DNA from: Candidatus Micrarchaeota archaeon
GTDB taxonomy: Archaea; B1Sed10-29; B47-G15
Length of the DNA: 64,000 nucleotides
Assembly: GCA_003660975.1 (NCBI GenBank)
Contig: QMVG01000002.1
Location: forward strand, 53,850 to 117,849
Direction of reading: 5' to 3'
The position numbers and the translations under genes were made by a program. Shown piece after piece: positions 14,604 through 45,170 of this stretch. The notes below the pieces were generated by a model that did not search any database, had not been told where the DNA came from, and was given only the letters and a program-made list of their open reading frames with translations. How positions within the stretch are numbered: position 1 is the stretch's first letter; each line of letters starts with the position of its first letter.

Positions 14604-15863
14604 ATGTGGGTAGAAAAGTACAGGCCTAAGAACCTAGATGATGTGATAGGTTATCCTTCTGTAGTGGAAAAGCTCAGAATATGGGCAGACAACTGGGAAA
14701 AGGGCAGGCCCCAAAAAGCTCTTTTGTTCTCAGGCAGGCCAGGCATAGGAAAGACAGCAATAGCACTAGCCCTGGCATCCGAATATAACTGGGAAGTGCT
14801 TGAGATGAATGCTTCTGATATAAGGGATAAGAAAAGTATAGAAAGGATTGCTGGTCTTGCCTCTGTTTCAAGAACCTTTTCAGGCAATTTGAGGCTGCTT
14901 CTTTTTGACGAGATTGACGGTCTCTATGCTGCTGACAGGGGAGGAGCCTCTGCTGTGCTTAACATAATAAAGACAGCGAAGTGCCCTGTTATTTTAACAG
15001 CGAACAATGCATGGGACAGGAAGATTGCTAATTTGAGACCTGCTGTTGAGATTATAAGTTTCAAAAAAATCCACCACAGTTCTATAAAAAAGCTGCTCCA
15101 AAAGATAGTTAAAAAAGAAGGCCTTAACATACCAGACACGGTTATTTCATTTATTGCAGAAAATGCAGAAGGGGACGTGCGCTCTGCAATAAATGACTTG
15201 GAGAGCATTGCATTCTCAAAGCACTTTGACAAGGAAGTTCTTGAGAGCATCGCGAAGAGAAACAGGCAAGAGGACATATTCAATGCTATGAAAAAAATCC
15301 TGAAAGAAAAGAACTACTTTGAGAGCATATCAGTTGTTGATGAGCTTTCTGAAGACCCCTCCATGCTCATGGCGTGGATAGAGGAAAACATTCCAGCAGA
15401 GTACAAGAGAGCAGAAGACCTGTTTAGAGCTTTTGATATACTCTCTCGTGCAGACCTCTTTTTTGGGAGGACATTGAGCAGGCAGGATTACTCTTTATGG
15501 AGGTATGCAATTACACTTATGACAGCTGGCGTTAGCTATGCAAAAAAAGAAAAATACCCTGGCTTTACCAGATACAATTTCCCAAAGAAGATCTCTTATT
15601 TGTCAGCCAGTAAAAAGCAGAGGAACATCCTAAAAAGCATTGCCCTGAAAGTAGCTAAGCGCTGCCACCTGTCATCAAAAAAGGTTATTTTAGAATACAT
15701 GCCTCTGATAAAAGTTCTAGCAAAAAAAGAGGCAGTAAAGGTGGCTGCCCAGTTTGAGCTTTCAGATGAAGAGTTGAGTTATCTCGGTGTTAAAGACAGC
15801 AAAAAAGTTGTTAAGGAAGCAAATGCATTAAGGGAGGAATATATTAAAAAACTAGTCGCCTAG
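14604..15863 (+). CDS. rfcL: Replication factor C large subunit
   Basis: 'WVEKYRP', GRPGIGKT, 'EMNASD', 'DEIDG', 'WIEENIP'. Confidence 0.93.
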   Translation: MWVEKYRPKNLDDVIGYPSVVEKLRIWADNWEKGRPQKALLFSGRPGIGKTAIALALASEYNWEVLEMNASDIRDKKSIERIAGLASVSRTFSGNLRLLLFDEIDGLYAADRGGASAVLNIIKTAKCPVILTANNAWDRKIANLRPAVEIISFKKIHHSSIKKLLQKIVKKEGLNIPDTVISFIAENAEGDVRSAINDLESIAFSKHFDKEVLESIAKRNRQEDIFNAMKKILKEKNYFESISVVDELSEDPSMLMAWIEENIPAEYKRAEDLFRAFDILSRADLFFGRTLSRQDYSLWRYAITLMTAGVSYAKKEKYPGFTRYNFPKKISYLSASKKQRNILKSIALKVAKRCHLSSKKVILEYMPLIKVLAKKEAVKVAAQFELSDEELSYLGVKDSKKVVKEANALREEYIKKLVA

Positions 15864-17486
15864 TGGCTTTATATCTATTTCCAACGCAGACACTGGAAGC
15901 TCTATGTCAAAGTTGTTTAGCACAAGCGGATGAATCTCTCCCATGACACCTATTTTCTTTCCATCCAGAAGGATGGCAGCGCACCTTCCTCCTATGAAAG
16001 CAGGGTCTTTTTCTTCAACCACGTCTATCTTTTTTCCACACTCTCTTGCTACTGCCTCTGCCACTGCTTTTATTGATGAGAAATCAGCATTTTTGTGGCA
16101 CAGGGCAACTGCAAGATGCAATTCCTCTCTTGCCTTGTTTTCGCTTTTCTCATCTGGGAAAACAACACGGCCTATCTCAAAAATGTTCTGTGGGTATTCA
16201 TAATGCTTGTTTTCCGAAAGCACTTTCATAAGCCCTGGCAGCAGAGAGTTCCTGATAATATTGTAGTTTTCGTTCTTGGCATTGGCCAATTCAATATATT
16301 TTTCTGCTTTTCTGTTCATCTTTTTGAACTCTTCGTCTACATTTGTTAGGTGGTAATTGTAACACTCTAAGAAGGAAAAGCCAACACAGACCTCTGCAAT
16401 CTTTCTGGCTAATATCTCTTCATAGCTTTCTTCCCCCATTGTGTAAACATTTGGGATTTCTTCTTTAAAGTTGTCATATCCATAAGCAATTGAAATGTCA
16501 TTTATGAGGTCAACAGGATGCAATATGTCTGTTCTATATGCAGGATAAAGGACCTCCAAAACATCGCCCTTTACTCTTGCCTCATGCCCCATCATTGCCA
16601 GCAGTTTTGCCATTTCACTGCCAGAAAGCTTTAGACCAAGCCTCCTGTTCGCGTCAGCTATATCAACCTCCATGCTCAGTGGCTCTAGTTTAGGATAAGA
16701 AATTTCGTTAACCTTAACCTCATATATCTCTCCACCCATATCAGCCAACTGTGCAACAACAATATTTAATGTCTGCTCCACCGTTTGCTTATGCGTGCCA
16801 GTTACATCAATGAAAACATTTTTTGTTTTTTCTGTCACAGCTGTTTCTGCGCTGTTTATTATTGGTGGTAATGACAAAACCTGTTTCTTGCTGTCTATCC
16901 ATATAGGGTATTTTGGACCAGCTAGCAGGTGCCCGTATGCTTTTCCTTTGGGGTGCTCTTCAAGAATTTGCTTAACAGTCATCTCATTATCATAACCCAG
17001 GGGCCTAAACTTGAAGCTGCTGTCAACAGCCTTATATGTCAGCGGAAAAGTTATTGTGTCAAGGTCATACAGGCCTATGCTGGCTTTCTTCCTGTTTCTG
17101 CACTGGGTTGTATGCAACTTCTCTTGCATCTGCATTAAGCTTTTGACAGTATAGTCATCAACCTCTATGCCTTTTACTACTGCATTGGCCACGAACGGTC
17201 TTATCTTAACAGCGTCTTTCTCTAATATTGACTTATAATCTGATTTTTTTACTGCGTACCTTCTCAGCCCTGTTCTTATGCCCAAAAAAGATGAAAGCGC
17301 TCTGGCAAAGCCTTCCTCTGAAAGCATGTCAGGTCTGTTTGGAAATATCTCAACGTCTATCTCTGCGTCAGTCACGGCGCTGAGGTCTGTTCCTAACATA
17401 GGTATTTTCTCTATAAGCTCCTTATCACTAATTTCTTTTCCAAGGTAGTCAAGCACCTTTCTTTTGTTTAATATTATGTTCGGCAT
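15852..17486 (-). CDS. pheT: Phenylalanine-tRNA ligase beta subunit
   Basis: 'PNRPDMLS', 'QEKLH', 'PPIINS', 'YRTDILHPVD', 'GEIHP'. Confidence 0.96.
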   Translation of the reverse strand: MPNIILNKRKVLDYLGKEISDKELIEKIPMLGTDLSAVTDAEIDVEIFPNRPDMLSEEGFARALSSFLGIRTGLRRYAVKKSDYKSILEKDAVKIRPFVANAVVKGIEVDDYTVKSLMQMQEKLHTTQCRNRKKASIGLYDLDTITFPLTYKAVDSSFKFRPLGYDNEMTVKQILEEHPKGKAYGHLLAGPKYPIWIDSKKQVLSLPPIINSAETAVTEKTKNVFIDVTGTHKQTVEQTLNIVVAQLADMGGEIYEVKVNEISYPKLEPLSMEVDIADANRRLGLKLSGSEMAKLLAMMGHEARVKGDVLEVLYPAYRTDILHPVDLINDISIAYGYDNFKEEIPNVYTMGEESYEEILARKIAEVCVGFSFLECYNYHLTNVDEEFKKMNRKAEKYIELANAKNENYNIIRNSLLPGLMKVLSENKHYEYPQNIFEIGRVVFPDEKSENKAREELHLAVALCHKNADFSSIKAVAEAVARECGKKIDVVEEKDPAFIGGRCAAILLDGKKIGVMGEIHPLVLNNFDIELPVSALEIDIKPLGD

Positions 17487-17490
17487 GAAA

Positions 17491-18966
17491 TCAACCCATC
17501 AACCACTTTTTGCTTTGCCTCAATTTTTGGATGTCGTTTTTGTAAAGCTCTCTCAAGTCGTTTATCTTGTAGTAATCCATCATTATTCTGTCAAGACCAG
17601 GCCCCCACGCAAGCACAGGAATATCCTCTCCCAATAGAGGCACAACCACTTCTGGCCTAAATATGCCTGCTCCTCCAAGCTCTATCCATTGTTTCTGAGC
17701 AGGGTGGAATATCTCCATCTCTGTGCTGAAATATGTATAAGGGAAATAAGCAGGCCTAAATCTGGCTTTAAGCTTCATTTTTTTGAAGAACTGCTTCAGG
17801 TAGCCTAAAAGGTGTCTAAAATTGGCATTCTTATCAACAACTATACCCTCAAATTGGTTGAACTCAAAGCTGTGACTCCAATCAACTGTTTCATTCCTAA
17901 AGCACCTACCTATGGCAAAGTACTTTGCAGGCAGGTCTTTTTTTATGTCCAGAGACGCAAGTGTTATAGCACTTAGACAGGTAGTGTGTGTTCTCATGAC
18001 AAGTTTTTTAGCTTCATCTGCACTCCATTTGTAATTCCACCCTTTTGAGCCATGTCCCCCTTCTTCGTGCATTCTTTTGACTCTCTCAACAAGCTCTTTT
18101 TTTGGAAGCTCTCCTTTTCCCTTTACATAAAAGGTATCCTGCATTTCCCTTACTGGATGGTCTTGAGCAGTGAAGAGAGCGTCAAAATTCCAAAAAGCAG
18201 TCTGTATTAATGAACCAGTCATTTCCTTGAAGCCCATTTCAAGCCATATCTTTCTGGCATAGTCTTCTGCCTGCCTTACAAAATGCCTCTTTCCAGGATA
18301 TATGCTTCCTGCCTCTGCTTTAACATCATATTTTCTGAATACTAAGTTTTTCCATTTTCCTGTTTTTATCATTTCAGTGTTCAACTGTGATACTTCTTCT
18401 CTTGTTCCTTTTTTTAGCACAGACAGACCCGCGTTCGTTATCTTAGCGAAAAGCTTTTTCCTTTTCTTTAACTCAATCAAAGAGGCCCTTTTTTCCAGCT
18501 CTTTTAACGCTTTTATCTTGTCTTTGGGAATTTTTCCCTTGCTGATTAAAAACAGCATCTCCTCATGAGGCAGGCTTTTTTTCAAGAATTGCCTGCCTGT
18601 TGCTGTAATTTTTATTTTTCCAGAGGAGATTGTTGCAAGGTTCAGTTTTCTAGCCCATGTAAGAGCTATCTGAATTTCGTTTCCCAGCTCTTTTCTGGCC
18701 TGCTTTAAGCTGATCTCCTTTTCTTTTATAAGATTTAAAAGCCTCCTCTCAGGAAAGCCTTTTTTTATATATTCTCTTGCTTCATCTGACAATTTTATTT
18801 CAGTGAGCTCTTTTTCTTCAATGTCAACAAACTTTTTCTCAGCCAACATGGATATAGCATAGCTTACAGAAGCTTCAGGCAGTTTTGTTATCTTGCTCAA
18901 TTCACATAATTCTCTTTTCTTTCCATCTTTTAGAGCATTCAAAACTTTTATTTCGTGCTTGTGCAT
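17491..18966 (-). CDS. pheS: Phenylalanine-tRNA ligase alpha subunit
   Basis: 'FWNFDALF', 'HPVREMQDTF', 'RTHTT', 'FRNE', 'YFPYT', 'WGPGLDR'. Confidence 0.96.
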   Translation of the reverse strand: MHKHEIKVLNALKDGKKRELCELSKITKLPEASVSYAISMLAEKKFVDIEEKELTEIKLSDEAREYIKKGFPERRLLNLIKEKEISLKQARKELGNEIQIALTWARKLNLATISSGKIKITATGRQFLKKSLPHEEMLFLISKGKIPKDKIKALKELEKRASLIELKKRKKLFAKITNAGLSVLKKGTREEVSQLNTEMIKTGKWKNLVFRKYDVKAEAGSIYPGKRHFVRQAEDYARKIWLEMGFKEMTGSLIQTAFWNFDALFTAQDHPVREMQDTFYVKGKGELPKKELVERVKRMHEEGGHGSKGWNYKWSADEAKKLVMRTHTTCLSAITLASLDIKKDLPAKYFAIGRCFRNETVDWSHSFEFNQFEGIVVDKNANFRHLLGYLKQFFKKMKLKARFRPAYFPYTYFSTEMEIFHPAQKQWIELGGAGIFRPEVVVPLLGEDIPVLAWGPGLDRIMMDYYKINDLRELYKNDIQKLRQSKKWLMG

Positions 18967-18986
18967 ACTCTTACCCTTTTTATGAA

Positions 18987-19060
18987 TGGGGTGGGCCGGA
19001 TTTGAACCAGCGACACCCAGGTCTTCAGCCTGGTGCTCTCCCGGTCTGAGCTACCACCCC
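18987..19060 (-). tRNA. tRNA-Phe(GAA), intronless, CCA not encoded
   Basis: Reverse complement GGGGTGG-TAGCTCAG...CCAGG-CT-GAA-GA-CCTGG...GCTGG-TTCAAAT-CCGGC-CCACCCC-A folds as a cloverleaf. Confidence 0.97.
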
Positions 19061-19068
19061 TCGAAGAG

Positions 19069-19091
19069 TTAACGAAGCACTTCTTTATTAA
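19069..19091 (-). promoter_or_regulatory. Shared upstream motif TTAATAAAGAA-N7-GTTAA (copy 1, tRNA-Phe unit)
   Basis: 16 of 23 positions identical to the element upstream of tRNA-His. Confidence 0.55.
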
Positions 19092-19330
19092 TTATAGCTT
19101 TTAAACTGCCGGTTTTGAGGCCCAGAAAGAGCGCAAAACCAGCAGGCTAACTCATTGATTAAACACTGTAAATATAAACGCTGAGGCCTGCTTTCTGCTT
19201 TGCATGAAAATATTATTTTTTAGCTTTTATTTATATCTTTTCCTGGCACCCTGAAGAACACTCTCTTCAATACTTATCAGTTATTTCCAAACTTACTTAC
19301 TACTAACTTATTTAAGCTTCTTGCTTTCGC

Positions 19331-19549
19331 TTATATTACTCCTGCCTCTTCCTTTACTGCATCTACAAACATATCACTGCACTCATCAGAGCAAAAATGA
19401 TATGTATGCTCCACTCCCTGCCCATCCACTTCCATTGTTATTCTATCCGTGAACAATGCCTTCCCTGTCATCAGTTTTCCACAGTAGTCGCACCTATGGA
19501 TTACTCTGCCACAGGTATCGCAAATCCAAAACTCCTCTTTTTTCACCAT
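19331..19549 (-). CDS. Small TRASH/YHS-like metal-binding protein
   Basis: CDTC, CDYCG and FCSDEC motifs; GAGGT RBS. Confidence 0.75.
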   Translation of the reverse strand: MVKKEEFWICDTCGRVIHRCDYCGKLMTGKALFTDRITMEVDGQGVEHTYHFCSDECSDMFVDAVKEEAGVI

Positions 19550-19723
19550 CTTTATTACCTCATTGACTAATGCAATAGTTAATATAAAAAGCCCACCATC
19601 TTATAGTTGTAAAATAAATCATAACTCTGATCCTTTTTAGCTTTGAGTTTCAAAATCAAGCGCATTGCTTATTTTTGGGCCTTCTCTTTATAAATATCTT
19701 TTTACGTAATGCATATGGTGCTT

Positions 19724-20119
19724 ATGAAATTCGTTTTGGATGCGAGTGCTTTCATCAATGCTTCTGCCCTTGACGTGAATGAAGGTGATAGTTACTATAC
19801 TGTATCAGACGTTGAAGAAGAGATAAAAGATGCATCCTCCAAAGGCTTGTTGGAGAGATTGAAGGCCTCTAAGGCCTTGGTGTTTTTGAGCCCTTCAAAA
19901 GAAGCCATAAAAATAGTGGAAAAAGCCGCGTCTAGGTTGGGAAGCATAAGGCATCTGAGCAATACAGATATAAAGGTGCTGGCCCTTGCCCTTGATTTGA
20001 AAGCCACATTAATCTCAGATGACTTCACCATGCAAAACGTTGCTATGGACCTTGGCATAAGCTTTGAGGCTGTTTTGAGAGGCAAGATAAAAGAAAAGAA
20101 GCGTTTCAGGAAGATTTAA
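19724..20119 (+). CDS. Nob1-like PIN-domain nuclease lacking the Zn ribbon
   Basis: 'VLDASAFI', 'LSNTDIKVLALAL', 'SDDFTMQNVA'; ends where the Zn ribbon normally begins. Confidence 0.82.
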   Translation: MKFVLDASAFINASALDVNEGDSYYTVSDVEEEIKDASSKGLLERLKASKALVFLSPSKEAIKIVEKAASRLGSIRHLSNTDIKVLALALDLKATLISDDFTMQNVAMDLGISFEAVLRGKIKEKKRFRKI

Positions 20120-20940
20120 AGCTCTTTTTTAGGTAAGCTTATTTCCTCTTCACCAGCAAAGCTTTCTATTACGAGAGAAGCAATTTGCTTTCTGTAAATA
20201 ATCACCAGTACAAGCAGTATTAACAATGTAATGCTGTATATCGGTTTTTCTATCAGAAAGGCCACCAAGCCTGTTGCTAATCTCTGCAGGTCAAATGTCT
20301 CGCTTATAGTCTTTTCAACAGAGAATTTAAATTCAAACGTGTCAGCCAGCAATGGCTTGTTCCAGATGTAGACAAGCCTTCCTCCTGTTAACACACCTTT
20401 AACAACCTTCGCGCCTTCCACAATCTCGCTATCAGGTCTTGGATTTACACCTATGATTTCCAGTCTTTTTGAAGGAGATATCTTTATCTCAAGCGTATTT
20501 TTTCTAGGTATGACAAAACGCTTGGTTTCATTGTGGTAGTAAAGAAAGTCCTCTCCTCTAAGAACCCTAATTACTGCTCTTGGCCTCTCTTCTGATATTT
20601 TTGCCAGGTTTTTAACTTTGTATTGTATAACAATGTCTGTTCCGAATTGGGGGTCTGTTTCTGTGCTTACGCTGACGTCTTCAATATTCCCCTTAACATA
20701 AAAATCAATGTCATTCAAAAAGCTCTTCCAAAGATTAAGGTCATTTTTGGCAATTATGCTAAGGTTATGTAGTTGTTCAAACTCAGAGGTATTTTGTATG
20801 TCTACTTTATATTCTTCTGTTACTATAGCATCTCCATTTTCTTCTAAGATTATTTCTACATTGTGACCTATCAACTCCTTTGCATATGCAGGTCCTAACA
20901 ATACCATAAAAAGCAAAAACAATGCAATAACTCTTTTCAT
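20116..20940 (-). CDS. Secreted/surface hypothetical protein with C-terminal TM anchor
   Basis: Signal peptide (..AYA/K), C-terminal hydrophobic helix. Confidence 0.7.
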   Translation of the reverse strand: MKRVIALFLLFMVLLGPAYAKELIGHNVEIILEENGDAIVTEEYKVDIQNTSEFEQLHNLSIIAKNDLNLWKSFLNDIDFYVKGNIEDVSVSTETDPQFGTDIVIQYKVKNLAKISEERPRAVIRVLRGEDFLYYHNETKRFVIPRKNTLEIKISPSKRLEIIGVNPRPDSEIVEGAKVVKGVLTGGRLVYIWNKPLLADTFEFKFSVEKTISETFDLQRLATGLVAFLIEKPIYSITLLILLVLVIIYRKQIASLVIESFAGEEEISLPKKEL

Positions 20941-20984
20941 AACCCTCACCTATTTGATGGCTTTTAGCGCTTTTAAAGATTTTG

Positions 20985-21884
20985 TCAAACGCTCAACTTC
21001 ATAAAATCTTCAGCAACTTCTGTGTTTCTGAATATCTGCTTTGCCTCCTTTTTTAGTATCTTAACATCCTCATAACGGGGGCTGAAATGAGTTAGAATTA
21101 GTTGCTTTACTTCTGCCTCTTTCGCAATCCTAGCTGCATCCCTTGCTGTCATATGGCCATAATCATGTGCCTTTTCTTTTATAACATCGCTAAAGGTGGC
21201 CTCCATTATAAGCAGGTCAGAACCCCTTACATAATCTACAATTTTTTTAGAGGGATTGGCATCCATTACTATAGATATCTTCCGTAGGTGCTTTTCCTTT
21301 ACGAGCACATCCTCAGGTTTTATTACTTTGCCCCTGAACCTTATGCTTTTTCCCTCTTTTAACTGTCTGCAAAGCGGATTGTTTAGCAACCCCAGTTTCT
21401 TGAGTTTCTTTTTGTCCAGATTCGGCTCTTTTTTTTCTTCAAACACAAAAGCATAGCAAGGACAAGTGTGCTCAACGCTGAAAGCAGTTACTGAGTAGTC
21501 CTTGTTCTCAAAAATAACTCCGTCCTTTTTTATCTGGTGGACAATTACTTTATAGGAAGGCTCAAAGTAATCCCAATTTACATAAAAATTAACGTGCCTT
21601 CTTATGCCAGATGGACCAAATATGTGCAGCTCTCCATCTCTCTTCATCAAGCTTAGGGATTGGATTAGACCTCCAAGACCAAGCACGTGGTCTGCGTGCA
21701 GATGACTTATAAAGATGTTTTGAACTTTGTAAGGGCTTATTCCAGCTATTGCTAACTGTCTTTGTGTCCCTTCCCCACAATCGAACAGCATTGAGTTTCC
21801 TCTAAACTTTAGGTGAATACTGGGGTGGTTTCTGCTTTTTGTTGGAAGGGAAGCTGAGGTCCCAAGAAATGTTACTTCTATCAT
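20985..21884 (-). CDS. rnz: Ribonuclease Z
   Basis: 'FLGTS', 'DCGEGTQ', HLHADH, 'GHMT', 'LTHFSPRY'; start set at MIEVTFLG. Confidence 0.95.
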   Translation of the reverse strand: MIEVTFLGTSASLPTKSRNHPSIHLKFRGNSMLFDCGEGTQRQLAIAGISPYKVQNIFISHLHADHVLGLGGLIQSLSLMKRDGELHIFGPSGIRRHVNFYVNWDYFEPSYKVIVHQIKKDGVIFENKDYSVTAFSVEHTCPCYAFVFEEKKEPNLDKKKLKKLGLLNNPLCRQLKEGKSIRFRGKVIKPEDVLVKEKHLRKISIVMDANPSKKIVDYVRGSDLLIMEATFSDVIKEKAHDYGHMTARDAARIAKEAEVKQLILTHFSPRYEDVKILKKEAKQIFRNTEVAEDFMKLSV

Positions 21885-21936
21885 AATTTTATTGAGTACT
21901 AACAACTTTTTATATCCAATATGTATATTTTTAAAT

Positions 21937-23283
21937 ATGTTTGATTTTTCTCCTTCCATACTTAATGCAGACGTTGATTATATTGAATTTCGGGCTTCTA
22001 AGATCTTGTCAAACAGCATATCTGTTAAAAATGCAAGGCTTGAGAAAGTTAGCAGTGATACTGCAGAGGACTTTTGTTTTAGGGTTATGGTAGATGGAGC
22101 ATGGGGCATGGCCTCAAGCAATCGCTTTGATAAGATAGATAAAATTAAGAAGGAAGCCATAAAGATGGCAAAGCTTGCTAAGAAAAGAACCTTGGAGTCT
22201 TTCCTAAGCGAGGAGAAAACGCATACGGACAGTGTGGAAGCTAAAGTAAAGGTTAAGAACGAGGACATTCCAATAGACAGAAAAATCAAAGACTTAATTG
22301 AAATGAACAAAGAGATGAAAATAGACAAAAGAATAGTGAATTACTCCCTGCAGTTGTCTGAGCTTAAAACTGAAAAATACTTTATTAATTCTGAATCAAC
22401 AGAGATTTTTTTAAAGCAACAGGACACTTTGCTCTCTTTTTCCTCATACGCAAAGGCAGGCATTTTGCAATCCAGCCACGATGTTTTTGGGGCTCAGAAA
22501 GGATATGAGTTAGTCAAAGAGAATTGGGGTAAGGGAAGAAGGAATGCAGAGAAAAGCATATCTCTGTTGTATGCCAAGAGAATAAAGCCAGGTTCTTATG
22601 ATGTGGTGTTAGATGGAAAGATGGCAGGTGTCTTAGCCCATGAGGCAGTGGGCCATGCGAGTGAAGCAGACGCCGTGTTAACTGGAGAGTCATGTTTTTC
22701 CGGAAAACTAGGAAAGCGCCTGGCCTCCGAGCTTGTGAGCATTGTTGATAATCCAAGGTTGAAATATCAATATGGCTCTTACCCTTATGATGATGAGGGG
22801 GTTAAAAGCAGTAAGACCTCTATAATTGAGAAAGGGATATTAAAGACATATCTTCACTCAAGAGAAACAGCATACAAGTTAAATAGCAAGTCCACAGCCA
22901 ACGCTAGAGCGCAGCACACCAATAGATTTCAATTAGTTAGGATGAGCAACACTTATTTTGATGTTGGTGATTTTAGTAGAGATGAAATTTTTGATTTAAA
23001 GCACGGCATATATCTGGAGGGCAGCAGTGGAGGCGTTGTTGATGTCAGTACAGGTGATTTTCAGTTCGCAGCAGAGTTGGGCAAGACAATAAAGAATGGT
23101 GAAGAAACAGGGCTACTGAGAGACGTGGTTATACATGGAAACATTCTTAAGGTTTTGCAAAAAGTTGACGCTCTTGGAAAGAAAATATACCTGAATCCTG
23201 GAATTTGTGGAAAGGGTTCACAGCTGGTGAGGGTTAGCAGTGGCGGGCCACTTGTAAGAATCAGAGGTGTTAATCTTGCATGA
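21937..23283 (+). CDS. tldD: TldD family metalloprotease
   Basis: 'HEAVGHASEAD', 'YDDEG', 'RMSNTY', 'CGKGSQ'. Confidence 0.92.
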   Translation: MFDFSPSILNADVDYIEFRASKILSNSISVKNARLEKVSSDTAEDFCFRVMVDGAWGMASSNRFDKIDKIKKEAIKMAKLAKKRTLESFLSEEKTHTDSVEAKVKVKNEDIPIDRKIKDLIEMNKEMKIDKRIVNYSLQLSELKTEKYFINSESTEIFLKQQDTLLSFSSYAKAGILQSSHDVFGAQKGYELVKENWGKGRRNAEKSISLLYAKRIKPGSYDVVLDGKMAGVLAHEAVGHASEADAVLTGESCFSGKLGKRLASELVSIVDNPRLKYQYGSYPYDDEGVKSSKTSIIEKGILKTYLHSRETAYKLNSKSTANARAQHTNRFQLVRMSNTYFDVGDFSRDEIFDLKHGIYLEGSSGGVVDVSTGDFQFAAELGKTIKNGEETGLLRDVVIHGNILKVLQKVDALGKKIYLNPGICGKGSQLVRVSSGGPLVRIRGVNLA

Positions 23284-42586: not shown

Positions 42587-43813
42587 ATGAAGATTATAGC
42601 AGATCTTCATCTGCATTCCCATTTTTCAAGAGCCACAAGCCCAAAAATGAACTTGGAGGGCATATCTGAAGGTGCAAGGAAAAAGGGTTTGAACCTATTG
42701 GGCACTGGAGATTTTACTCACCCAAAGTATTTTGAAGAGTTAAAAAGAAAACTGCTGCCAAGCGATAATGGGACAGGCATTTATGAGTATAACGGCATTC
42801 ATTTCATGCTTCAGGTTGAGATATCATTAATATATCAACAGGGAGGGAAGCAACGCAGGGTGCATCATGTAATATTTGCTCCAGATTTTGAGGCTGCAGA
42901 GCAGATTAACAGCATGTTTTCTAAGTGGGGGAGGTTAGATTACGATGGAAGGCCTATTTTTGGAAAATCATCTATGGAATTCATGGATGCTCTGATGGCT
43001 CTATGTCCTGATGCTTTTGTGGTTCCTGCTCATGCTTGGACACCATGGTATGGCATATTCGGAAGCATGAGTGGCTTTGACTCTTTAAAGGAAGCCTTCG
43101 GAGAACATGTGAGACATATCCATGCGATAGAGACAGGTTTAAGTAGCGACCCTGCTATGAACTGGAGGATAAGCGAATTGGATAATGTATCTCTGATATC
43201 AAATAGCGATTCGCACTCCCCATATCCTTGGAGACTTGGGAGAGAAGCAAATGTTTTCGACACGAAAATGACATACAAAGACATAACTAATACTATAACA
43301 ACCAGAAAAGGATTTGAGTATACAATAGAGGTAGATCCAGCCTATGGAAAGTACCACTACGATGGGCATAGAAATTGCGGCGTGTCTATGAGCCCTGAAG
43401 AAGCGAGGAAGCACAATAACATCTGTCCTGTCTGCGGCAAGCCACTTACCCTGGGGGTGGAACACAGGGTTGAGGATTTGGCAGACAGACCAGCAGGATA
43501 TAGACCAAAGCATGCAGTTGATTTTATAAAATTGCTGCCTTTAGCAGAGTTAATCGCCACTGCGAGAAAGAGGAGCTTGTCATCACCTACTGTTACAAAA
43601 GAGATGCACCAAATAATGAAAGATTACTCCGAGCTGTATGTGCTTACTGAAATGCCTGAAGATGAAATAAGGAAAATTGCGGATGAAAGCTTAGCAGAAC
43701 TGATACTCAAAAACAGGAATCAAGAATTGAAAATTAAACCAGGCTATGATGGTGTTTACGGTGAAATAATATTGGAGAGCGGAGCTCAGTCCTCGCTTCT
43801 GGATTTTTCCTGA
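42587..43813 (+). CDS. Endonuclease Q family (PHP domain) protein
   Basis: 'DLHLHS.FSRATS', 'GTGD', 'ETGLSSD', 'GKYH', C-terminal PIP-like QSSLLDF. Confidence 0.9.
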   Translation: MKIIADLHLHSHFSRATSPKMNLEGISEGARKKGLNLLGTGDFTHPKYFEELKRKLLPSDNGTGIYEYNGIHFMLQVEISLIYQQGGKQRRVHHVIFAPDFEAAEQINSMFSKWGRLDYDGRPIFGKSSMEFMDALMALCPDAFVVPAHAWTPWYGIFGSMSGFDSLKEAFGEHVRHIHAIETGLSSDPAMNWRISELDNVSLISNSDSHSPYPWRLGREANVFDTKMTYKDITNTITTRKGFEYTIEVDPAYGKYHYDGHRNCGVSMSPEEARKHNNICPVCGKPLTLGVEHRVEDLADRPAGYRPKHAVDFIKLLPLAELIATARKRSLSSPTVTKEMHQIMKDYSELYVLTEMPEDEIRKIADESLAELILKNRNQELKIKPGYDGVYGEIILESGAQSSLLDFS

Positions 43814-45078
43814 TTTAAAAACTCTACGATTTCTTCAATGCTTTTCCTGTACTCCTTTCCTTTTCTCATATCTCTCAGAGTGAAAATTTTTTCATTAATT
43901 TCTTTTGGTCCTACAATCAGGCAAAAAGGAATCTGTTTTGAAGAAGCATAGTCCATTTGTTTCTTGAGCTTCCTATCCATCAGGTCAATGTCACAATTAA
44001 TGCCCTGCTTTCTCAGTTTTTGGCATATTTTTATGCTCTCTTTTCTTACCTCATCTGTTGCAGAGGCTATGAAAACAGCTGTCTTGCTTGGCAGCTTTGG
44101 CAACATTTTCATATCTTTCATAGCATCTATTATTCTCTCTAGACCTATGGTCGTGCCTGTGGCAGGCAGTTCTTTCCCTGCAAAAAGCCCTATCAGTTTA
44201 TCATACCTGCCCCCACCCGTGATGCTTCCTACCTGTCCTTCTTTAACAACTGTCTCAAACACAAAAGAGGTGTAATAATCAAGCCCACGCGCCAATGACA
44301 AATCAAAACTGATAACCTCATCTGGCACTCCAAACAGTTTAACAGCTTCAAAGAAGTCCTCGCTTTCCCCCACGGTCTCTTTGCTCACATAGTCCTTTAC
44401 TCTGTCAAGCACTTTCTTTGGTTTTCCCTTTATTTTTATTATATCCATGATTTCCTTTACCTTCGCATCATCAACGCCCCTTTTCTTTAATTCGTCAATA
44501 ACACCCATTTCACCTATTTTGTCTATCTTATCAACAGCGACAAAAATATCTTTCTCATTTTCAATGCCCAGCTTTTTGTAAATTTCACTCATTAGTTTCC
44601 TGTTGTTAATCCTTATTTCAAAAGATTTGAAACCCACTGCTTTTAACACGTCATTTGTTATTGCTATTATCTCAGCATCTGCCAGCACACTTTTGCTTCC
44701 AACTATGTCAACATCACATTGCCAGAACTCTCTATACCTGCCCTTTTGCGGTTGGTCATATCGCCAGACCCTGCTTATCTGATACCTCTTGAACGGCACT
44801 GGCATATTCCTATTCATAGCCACATATCTAGCGAGAGGAACAGTTAAATCAAATCTTAAGGCAACATCTCTTCCGCCAAGGTCTTTAAATTTCCATATCA
44901 GCTTTTCCTCTTCTCCGTACTTTTTCATTAATACATCAAGAAACTCAACAGCAGGAGTTTCCAAGGCCTCAAAACCATACCTTTCAAAAACTTCCTTTAT
45001 TTTGGATATCACATATTCCCTTATCCTCATCTCTTCAGGAGAAAAATCTCTGGTCCCCTTAGGTATTGAAAGTCTCAT
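43786..45078 (-). CDS. hisS: Histidine-tRNA ligase
   Basis: 'PKGTRDF', 'LRFDLTVP', 'GRYREF.Q', 'RGLDYY', 'GGGRYD'. Confidence 0.97.
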   Translation of the reverse strand: MRLSIPKGTRDFSPEEMRIREYVISKIKEVFERYGFEALETPAVEFLDVLMKKYGEEEKLIWKFKDLGGRDVALRFDLTVPLARYVAMNRNMPVPFKRYQISRVWRYDQPQKGRYREFWQCDVDIVGSKSVLADAEIIAITNDVLKAVGFKSFEIRINNRKLMSEIYKKLGIENEKDIFVAVDKIDKIGEMGVIDELKKRGVDDAKVKEIMDIIKIKGKPKKVLDRVKDYVSKETVGESEDFFEAVKLFGVPDEVISFDLSLARGLDYYTSFVFETVVKEGQVGSITGGGRYDKLIGLFAGKELPATGTTIGLERIIDAMKDMKMLPKLPSKTAVFIASATDEVRKESIKICQKLRKQGINCDIDLMDRKLKKQMDYASSKQIPFCLIVGPKEINEKIFTLRDMRKGKEYRKSIEEIVEFLNQEKSRSED

Positions 45079-45097
45079 ATTGCACACCTTTCAGAAG

Positions 45098-45170
45098 GGC
45101 CCAGGCCGGGATTTGAACCCGGGCTGAGGGATCCACAGTCCCTAGTGCTAACCGCTACACTACCTGGGCC
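45098..45170 (-). tRNA. tRNA-His(GTG) with genomically encoded G-1
   Basis: Reverse complement G-GCCCAGG...AGGGA-CT-GTG-GA-TCCCT...CCGGG-TTCAAAT-CCCGG-CCTGGGC-C; G-1:C73 pair; full CCA not encoded. Confidence 0.97.

Follow-up and report, generated by a model that had tools for sequence, protein, structure and literature searches.

In mitochondria, polycistronic transcripts are punctuated by tRNAs, at which they are cut by RNase P and RNase Z (ELAC2). In the thrU-tyrU-glyT-thrT-tufB operon of E. coli, tRNAs are co-transcribed with the mRNA of a downstream translation factor and freed by processing. The pylT-pylS cassette places a tRNA gene beside the gene of its own charging enzyme, and bacterial T-box leaders and the thrS operator put aminoacyl-tRNA synthetase (aaRS) genes under tRNA-sensing control. 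Here we describe a related arrangement in a 64-kb window (the whole stretch analysed, 64,000 nucleotides (nt) of contig QMVG01000002.1, assembly GCA_003660975.1) from a metagenome-assembled genome of a DPANN archaeon. The gene for tRNA-Phe stands directly in front of pheS-pheT, which encode both subunits of phenylalanyl-tRNA synthetase (PheRS), and this is one of six units in the genome in which a tRNA gene adjoins the gene of its cognate enzyme. We consider it probable (roughly 0.6) that such units are co-transcribed and then resolved by tRNA processing.

The units share features with each of the described systems. Mitochondrial tRNA excision by RNase P and RNase Z, as stated in the abstracts of PMC3790967 and PMC8437803, is paralleled here by tRNA and protein-coding genes that abut with 0-2 nt between them (serS/tRNA-Lys/lysK and argS/tRNA-Arg) in a genome that encodes the same two nucleases. 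Unlike mitochondrial DNA, this is a chromosome of the free-living archaeal type with many promoters, in which only some genes are punctuated; moreover, the tRNA flanking an aaRS gene is usually cognate, which is not so in mitochondria. As in pylT-pylS, and in the tRNA-Trp(A73)/TrpRS-A pair of Candidate Phyla Radiation (CPR) bacteria as portrayed in part of PMC5370408, the tRNA lies directly beside the gene of its own enzyme on the same strand. Those pairs are extra, specialised or transferred ones beside a standard set (for TrpRS-A, according to the same portion of that paper), whereas the pairs described here comprise the sole housekeeping tRNA-Phe, tRNA-His and tRNA-Cys, involve standard enzymes that are present in single copy and cover six amino acids at once. 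As in the tufB operon, tRNAs here also lead other translation-related genes, namely those for L18e, Rpp21 and a diphthamide synthase; in that operon, however, the tRNAs are non-cognate, CCA is encoded and other 3′ nucleases act, whereas here the tRNAs are cognate, CCA is absent and RNase Z would be expected to cut.

The processing step proposed here has a described counterpart in Nanoarchaeum equitans, likewise a DPANN archaeon, for which sections of PMC3491384 report dicistronic precursors of tRNA and C/D small RNA in RNA-seq data, with an RNase Z cut at the tRNA 3′ end making the 5′ end of the downstream RNA. In that case the downstream product is a small guide RNA and not an mRNA, there is no cognate relation, and the organism is without RNase P, which is present here. 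T-box leaders and the thrS operator are similar in that a tRNA-shaped element stands in the leader of its own synthetase, and a similar logic is possible. However, no T-box was matched in an Rfam scan of window positions 15000-22500 at E values up to 0.1, which returned only tRNA, and the element is a real and sole tRNA gene that must be cut out to function. A literature search, from which subscription journals and supplements were excluded, returned no account in which such cognate units form a scheme for the standard amino acids. Each of the parts (tRNA punctuation, tRNA-mRNA operons and cassettes of the pylT-pylS type) is known; what appears to be new is that they are combined, in a cellular genome, for housekeeping pairs.

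The window contains exactly two tRNAs according to ARAGORN, one tRNA-Phe(GAA) and one tRNA-His(GTG). The features of the two units, in the order of transcription, are as follows:

19086-19107, minus strand: AT-rich TATA-like stretch recognised by eye, candidate archaeal promoter of the Phe unit
18987-19060, minus strand: tRNA-Phe(GAA), called by ARAGORN, 65.4 bits with Infernal (RF00005); discriminator A, CCA not encoded
18967-18986, minus strand: tRNA-Phe/pheS spacer of 20 nt, read from the sequence; predicted leader of the pheS mRNA after an RNase Z cut
17491-18966, minus strand: pheS, PheRS alpha subunit, 491 amino acids (aa) (PF01409, 4e-80)
15852-17486, minus strand: pheT, PheRS beta subunit, 544 aa (PF17759; PF03484 and PF03483, that is, B5 and B3_4)
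45097-45169, minus strand: tRNA-His(GTG), called by ARAGORN, 64.8 bits with Infernal; the sole tRNA-His gene found
45079-45096, minus strand: tRNA-His/hisS spacer of 18 nt, without a T-run; GGTG, resembling a Shine-Dalgarno (SD) motif, 9-12 nt before the ATG
43786-45078, minus strand: hisS, HisRS, 430 aa, ATG at 45078 (PF13393, 1.7e-51; PF03129)

The initial annotation had placed tRNA-Phe 20 nt before the pheS ATG on the same strand, and the sequence, ARAGORN and Infernal agree on this. It had also noted that the spacer lacks a T-tract and that CCA is not encoded, and both points are borne out by the sequence: after the discriminator A the spacer reads TTCATAAAAAGGGTAAGAGT, with no T run of 4 or more, and is followed by the pheS ATG. 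The pheS start codon is sound, since alignments with PheS from relatives begin at residue 1. The open reading frame (ORF) map leaves 4 nt between pheS and pheT, and pheT is the final gene of the unit because the next gene converges from the other strand. No other tRNA-Phe gene was found in the genome (1 of 44 retained tRNA labels). The design is repeated for His, as had been claimed, so that both window tRNAs are paired with their cognate enzyme; here a G stands just before the tRNA 5′ end in the DNA, and again CCA is not encoded.

The TATA-like stretch lies 26-47 nt 5′ of the tRNA-Phe start. By eye, TTTAAA- or TTTATA-like boxes were seen 25-45 nt 5′ of most stand-alone tRNAs in the genome, and the stretch is a plausible promoter of the tRNA-Phe unit. 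The promoter and terminator scan applied is of bacterial type, and its 3 sigma-70-like matches against 2.5 expected are uninformative for an archaeon; it placed no terminator-like (hairpin-T) site in window positions 18700-19700.

The tRNA-Phe/pheS layout is real DNA. An assembly artefact on the pheS side was ruled out by contigs from two other samples that bridge the junction; one sample (X3) matches 18653-19008 without a difference and 18981-19174 with 2 differences, and the second (X4) spans 18567-19054 with 4. The source runs' own contigs break within tRNA-Phe, with a 30-nt overlap at 19011-19040.

A census was then made of the whole assembly (1.33 Mb in 130 contigs, 89.7% complete, 0.27% contaminated), for which the closest PheS matches carry the titles Pacearchaeota, Woesearchaeota or Nanoarchaeota; its assignment to DPANN is drawn from these titles. 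ARAGORN made 55 tRNA calls, of which 44 were kept; of the 11 dropped, 9 came from bacterial-looking tRNA clusters on three small contigs, 1 had an encoded CCA and 1 a 2,153-nt 'intron'. The small contigs (C108, C109 and C96) carry a dense cluster of 76-77-nt tRNAs and a further contig (C6) a tRNA-Leu with encoded CCA; all four look bacterial and may represent contamination of the bin.

Gene identities were taken from Pfam and NCBIfam, the ORF after every tRNA was read and scanned, and all aaRS genes were located. This gave six cognate units: tRNA-Phe>pheST, tRNA-His>hisS, tRNA-Cys>cysS, tRNA-Ser>serS, tRNA-Lys>lysK and argS>tRNA-Arg. All six tRNAs score 61-71 bits with Infernal, and no CCA is encoded after any of them. 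Spacers measure 17 nt between tRNA-Cys(GCA) and CysRS, 31-32 nt between tRNA-Ser(GGA) and SerRS, and 2 nt between tRNA-Lys(CTT) and the class I LysRS encoded by lysK. The serS stop codon directly abuts base 1 of tRNA-Lys (0 nt), making serS-tRNA-Lys-lysK one array; the argS stop codon likewise abuts tRNA-Arg(TCT) (0 nt), and a T7 run lies 3′ of that tRNA. The unit enzymes are single: queries with pheS, cysS, serS, lysK and argS each returned one match in the genome, and for hisS the sole additional match was weak (E 2.3e-5) and fell in the anticodon-binding domain encoded by thrS. With only single genes for tRNA-Phe, tRNA-His and tRNA-Cys, these pairs are not additional to, specialised beside or orthogonal to the standard set.

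All 19 expected kinds of aaRS were located, and the six with an abutting tRNA were cognate without exception. The initial annotation had called for a permutation check of cognate pairing, which turned out strongly in its favour: none of 1,000,000 shuffles of the 44 tRNA labels reached six cognate pairs, the maximum being 5, attained once, and the analytic product for 6/6 is ~5e-9. Synthetase genes are also over-represented among genes led by a tRNA. Among 13 ORF-leading tRNAs, picked by hand with a spacer of ≤33 nt, five led aaRS genes (hypergeometric P ~4e-7, assuming 1,400 genes). Four tRNAs with longer spacers were left out: Ser-TGA at 34 nt, Thr-GGT at 39 nt, where a T5 run intervenes, Glu at 46 nt and Gln at 52 nt. 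The other eight ORFs encode L18e, Rpp21, a homologue of diphthamide synthase, a histone-deacetylase (HDAC)-family protein, an EamA transporter and three unknowns of 130, 222 and 283 aa.

In the Rpp21 case (C8:3808-4272), a tRNA leads the gene for a subunit of a tRNA-processing enzyme: the Rpp21 gene (PF04032, 3e-16) comes after tRNA-Gly(GCC) in the same orientation, with a T5 run in the spacer. The tRNA-Cys>cysS unit belongs to a group of four synthetase genes within 10 kb (C5:34270-44127), where ileS and valS, 5 nt apart, and proS stand on the other strand.

Recurrence was assessed for each enzyme by searching 40 relatives and taking the best 29 loci outside the source genome, with intron-aware ARAGORN and counting same-strand tRNAs; calls made by eye or by motif (L109, L111, L132, L094, L098, L105 and L149) were kept apart from the ARAGORN counts. 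For hisS, tRNA-His lay 10-58 nt upstream in 7/29 loci and at 1,271 nt in one more; three further loci were recognised by T-arm and acceptor motif only, and no non-cognate tRNA was found at any of the 29. For cysS, tRNA-Cys lay 13-145 nt upstream in 6/29; a further four stood at 311-474 nt, and two were recognised by eye or motif. For lysK, ARAGORN placed tRNA-Lys ≤130 nt upstream in 6/29, which became 8 with two re-called intron-bearing tRNA-Lys(TTT) and 11 with three calls by eye (D- or T-loop introns); three others stood at 302-636 nt. For argS, tRNA-Arg was found 35-99 nt downstream in 7/29, one of them a doubtful GCG call with a 130-nt intron; a further six lay 205-292 nt away and another 661 nt away, and in one locus the tRNA was on the opposite strand. 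For tyrS, tRNA-Tyr lay 25-30 nt upstream in 3/29, all from one genus. The expectation that pairing would extend to relatives therefore held for His, Lys, Cys, Arg and Tyr, but failed for the Phe junction itself.

Many such tRNAs are missed or mislabelled by tRNA finders because of introns in their D-, T- or anticodon loops. In intron mode ARAGORN gave Leu, Thr, His or Ser for tRNAs beside cysS and lysK. A rerun on isolated segments returned tRNA-Lys(TTT) for two of these loci (L115 and L116), and four others (L139, L292, L316 and L335) were read by eye as tRNA-Cys from a CTGCA anticodon loop and U73. In two relatives the tRNA between serS and lysK (L109 in G008 and L111 in G011) is tRNA-Lys(CTT) with D-loop introns, in L109 also with a T-loop intron, and ARAGORN misses or mislabels both; in several relatives the 3′ ends of introns share a GGTGAAG motif. 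The genes serS and lysK are neighbours in many relatives and tRNA-Lys stands 3′ of serS in at least 8 loci, which indicates that the serS-tRNA-Lys-lysK array is old.

A second comparison used named records, some of which are the same contigs as in the set of relatives. Among 80 hisS loci, 51 are bacterial by title and 0/51 had tRNA-His in front, whereas the 29 archaeal ones included two titled Woesearchaeota with tRNA-His at 21 and 40 nt and one locus with it at 754 nt. Among 80 cysS loci, 10 are titled Aenigmatarchaeota, one of them without upstream sequence, and tRNA-Cys lay 7-37 nt upstream in 9/9 assessable loci; six of these were tRNA-Cys by ARAGORN, and three, called Leu with an intron, were read as Cys by eye (CTGCA loop, U73). 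The tight spacers often hold GGTGA 4-8 nt before the ATG. An adjacent tRNA was seen in 0/22 CPR-bacterial cysS loci, whose CysRS is 46-52% identical. The CysRS of this archaeon is as close to many CPR (Patescibacteria) enzymes, at 46-52%, as to many archaeal ones, a similarity that hints at exchange between DPANN archaea and CPR bacteria.

To explain these arrangements, we propose that tRNA-Phe, pheS and pheT form one transcription unit whose promoter lies in front of the tRNA. RNase P would trim the 5′ side of tRNA-Phe, and RNase Z would cut after discriminator A73, between window positions 18987 and 18986. One RNase Z cut would thereby make both the tRNA 3′ end and the 5′ end of the pheST mRNA, with a 20-nt leader beginning at 18986, and the CCA-adding enzyme would add CCA to the cut tRNA. 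The shared promoter would couple the supply of a tRNA and its charging enzyme in a streamlined genome, and the six units may belong to a lineage-wide habit in which translation-gene operons are punctuated by tRNAs. The genome encodes each component of this processing machinery that was looked for: RNase Z, RNase P RNA (162 bits), Rpp21 and a CCA-adding enzyme (PF09249, 156 bits).

The 2-nt lysK spacer has no room for an SD motif, and translation of lysK is therefore expected to require the RNase Z cut, by which an internal AUG would become the start of a nearly leaderless mRNA; archaea translate leaderless mRNAs. The serS mRNA would, after the cuts, end at its own stop codon. The lengths of the spacers also bear on where transcription could start. 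PMC3491384 places box A of N. equitans ~26 nt ahead of the start site; with tRNA-aaRS spacers of 2-32 nt, a TATA box at that distance would fall inside the tRNA gene, and the spacers are too short for an archaeal promoter. Neither a T4+ run nor a hairpin-T site was found in the five tRNA>aaRS spacers. A search with two short motifs did not find the 16S 3′ end in the assembly, and SD signals were instead inferred from positional enrichment: the 4-mers GGTG, GAGG, AGGT and GGAG peak 8-13 nt before long-ORF starts, 253 of 602 long ORFs carry one, and so do the His, Cys and Ser spacers.

The initial annotation had also pointed to an RNase Z gene ~1.9 kb upstream of tRNA-Phe. The genes concerned are:

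20985-21959, minus strand: RNase Z-type metallo-beta-lactamase (PF12706, 9e-17; PF13691, tRNase Z endonuclease, 1.2e-8)
20116-20949, minus strand: 277-aa ORF without a Pfam match, between rnz and tRNA-Phe
19709-20119, plus strand: PIN-domain ribonuclease gene (PF17146, 1.3e-20), between rnz and tRNA-Phe

The position of rnz, 1.9 kb upstream, and its domains are as described. However, the gene lies outside the tRNA-Phe operon and is separated from tRNA-Phe by the PIN gene on the opposite strand, and its nearness is therefore probably incidental.

Several observations weigh against co-transcription and processing as the general account. None of the sequencing runs listed as containing the locus is of RNA. 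In the genome itself, no tRNA adjoins the genes for 13 of the 19 aaRS kinds. The Phe spacer, which had been described as containing a sequence like a ribosome-binding site (RBS), has none of the four SD 4-mers and only a weak SD-like AGGGT. T5 runs were expected after stand-alone tRNAs and not after ORF-leading ones, but they follow 3/13 ORF-leading tRNAs and 6/26 others (Fisher P = 1), so that the expected contrast failed; because such runs do not separate the two classes, the absence of a terminator is weak evidence. The cognate Phe junction was found in 0/29 loci of relatives, 0/27 named genome loci and 0/36 metagenome loci. Nor was cognate pairing seen for aspS (0/29, with tRNA-Lys 19 nt upstream in 1/29) or thrS (0/29), and serS was preceded 15-50 nt upstream by non-cognate tRNAs in 7/29 loci (five Gly-GCC, one Asn and one Phe), the one tRNA-Ser standing at 173 nt. 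Cognate pairing is thus not a rule. At least seven kinds of cognate junction compare with about three non-cognate ones (rough binomial P ~1e-6 to 2e-5), but the genomes of relatives are not independent and the counts overstate the number of evolutionary events. Finally, some relatives keep the pair with spacers of 200-470 nt and T-runs after the tRNA, indicating that linkage can persist without obvious co-transcription. Taken as a whole, the evidence for and against partly supports the interpretation put forward in the initial annotation, of one transcript cut by RNase Z.

The comparison for Phe was made with distant sequences. The best PheS in these sets is only 53-56% identical over its full length, with no close kin in the comparison. 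The metagenome scan yielded 41 loci, 36 of them with the 5′ end of pheS; across the scan, the closest full-length PheS shows 53% identity, and the matches at 65-69% lack the 5′ end. In one relative (L032 in G008), the 3′ half of a tRNA that may or may not be tRNA-Phe lies ~77 nt before pheS, at a contig edge. Elsewhere in relatives, tRNA-Phe usually stands beside tRNA-Gly(TCC), often upstream of serS. A conserved non-cognate tRNA-Thr(GGT) follows pheST in several relatives, just 3′ of pheT on the same strand (L051, L063 and L068, on contigs named Woesearchaeota, Pacearchaeota or Nanoarchaeota).

The persistence of linkage across long spacers and T-runs favours a different explanation, in which matched pairs stay adjacent because, by selfish-operon logic, linkage carries both partners through gene loss, recombination and horizontal transfer, with co-transcription as a by-product. 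The enzymes of widely conserved pairs indeed have their closest relatives across phyla or domains, CysRS among CPR bacteria at the identities given above and HisRS among Asgard and Chloroflexota enzymes (41-50%). The order may be tRNA first or, as for Arg, enzyme first, and the CPR tRNA-Trp(A73)/TrpRS-A operon is read as a transferred pair in part of PMC5370408. Yet the bacterial relatives of CysRS and HisRS are without an adjacent tRNA (the 22 CPR and 51 hisS loci), tight junctions have short spacers, many with the SD-like GGTGA, and the 0-2 nt junctions of this genome exceed mere linkage. We regard co-inheritance as unlikely to be the primary cause.

A bolder extension of co-transcription and processing would hold that DPANN archaea have repeatedly, and for seven amino acids or more, brought a real tRNA into the transcript of the synthetase that charges it, and that the uncut precursor acts as a cis sensor gating translation of the enzyme, the gate being either the synthetase itself or the flux of tRNA processing through RNase Z and RNase P. 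If true, this would be an archaeal counterpart of T-box and thrS-operator control that uses a genuine tRNA and not a mimic; we think it something of a long shot.

Feedback in its simpler form, already raised in the initial annotation, in which the synthetase binds its own tRNA on the uncut mRNA and either blocks the ribosome site or slows the RNase Z cut, would make enzyme synthesis follow the ratio of free tRNA to enzyme. It would explain why the tRNA is cognate, and in five units 2-32 nt separate the AUG from the acceptor end, the place that a bound synthetase would occupy. The thrS leader of E. coli, a tRNA mimic, offers a precedent; to our knowledge no T-box is known in archaea, and the Rfam scan matched none here. 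Against this, argS>tRNA-Arg, the most widely conserved pair, has its tRNA behind the gene, and feedback through a leader therefore cannot be the general explanation. In addition, serS is mostly led by non-cognate tRNAs in relatives, and spacers run to 100-470 nt in many relatives. When folded, the Phe, His, Cys and Lys precursors showed no significant extra structure (z -0.7 to -2.2): the cloverleaf was recovered for Phe and His, and a hairpin is predicted over the pheS start codon, with a whole-RNA z of only -2.2. Such feedback is a poor prospect as the reason for the pairing.

That the genes are independent and merely packed, with pheS using its own start site and a promoter inside or just after the tRNA so that adjacency is a side effect of compaction, is very unlikely. 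Compactness of the genome speaks for it, as do the tRNAs found in front of unrelated genes (those for the HDAC-family protein, the EamA transporter and the 130-, 222- and 283-aa ORFs), the restriction of the Phe junction to this lineage and the A/T-rich T-loop ~37 nt before the pheS ATG, a possible weak TATA. Against it, six of six junctions are cognate against none in the shuffles, cognate pairing recurs for five amino acids in relatives, 0-2 nt junctions leave signals no room and the tRNA body is G+C-rich and constrained.

If co-transcription and processing are correct, the units would extend tRNA punctuation, a mitochondrial hallmark, to cellular archaeal chromosomes. How archaea match synthetase to tRNA levels is little understood, and the six units provide an architecture in which such coupling can be tested concretely. 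Where tRNA and mRNA genes are annotated separately, these units will be missed, and promoters will be predicted for which there may be no counterpart. That cognate pairs have appeared repeatedly and independently (for His, Lys, Cys, Arg, Tyr, Phe and Ser) also amounts to a natural experiment on selection for linkage between interacting partners in streamlined, gene-exchanging genomes.

Stand-alone tRNAs of this genome show a further feature: three to four repeat families begin directly 3′ of many of them. The first, a GGGACC...GGTCCC hairpin with a conserved block of ~40 nt, follows several tRNA-Leu, Thr, Ala and Ser genes; the second is a T-rich block after tRNA-Val and tRNA-Ile, and the third a G+C-rich block after tRNA-Gln and tRNA-Val. 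Examples, all outside the window, lie at C1:55982-56050, C4:500-576, C4:56463-56530, C1:67066-67110, C4:30070-30116, C1:66340-66380 and C2:4350-4391. These repeats may act as terminators, give rise to small RNAs through RNase Z cleavage, or represent attachment scars of mobile elements.

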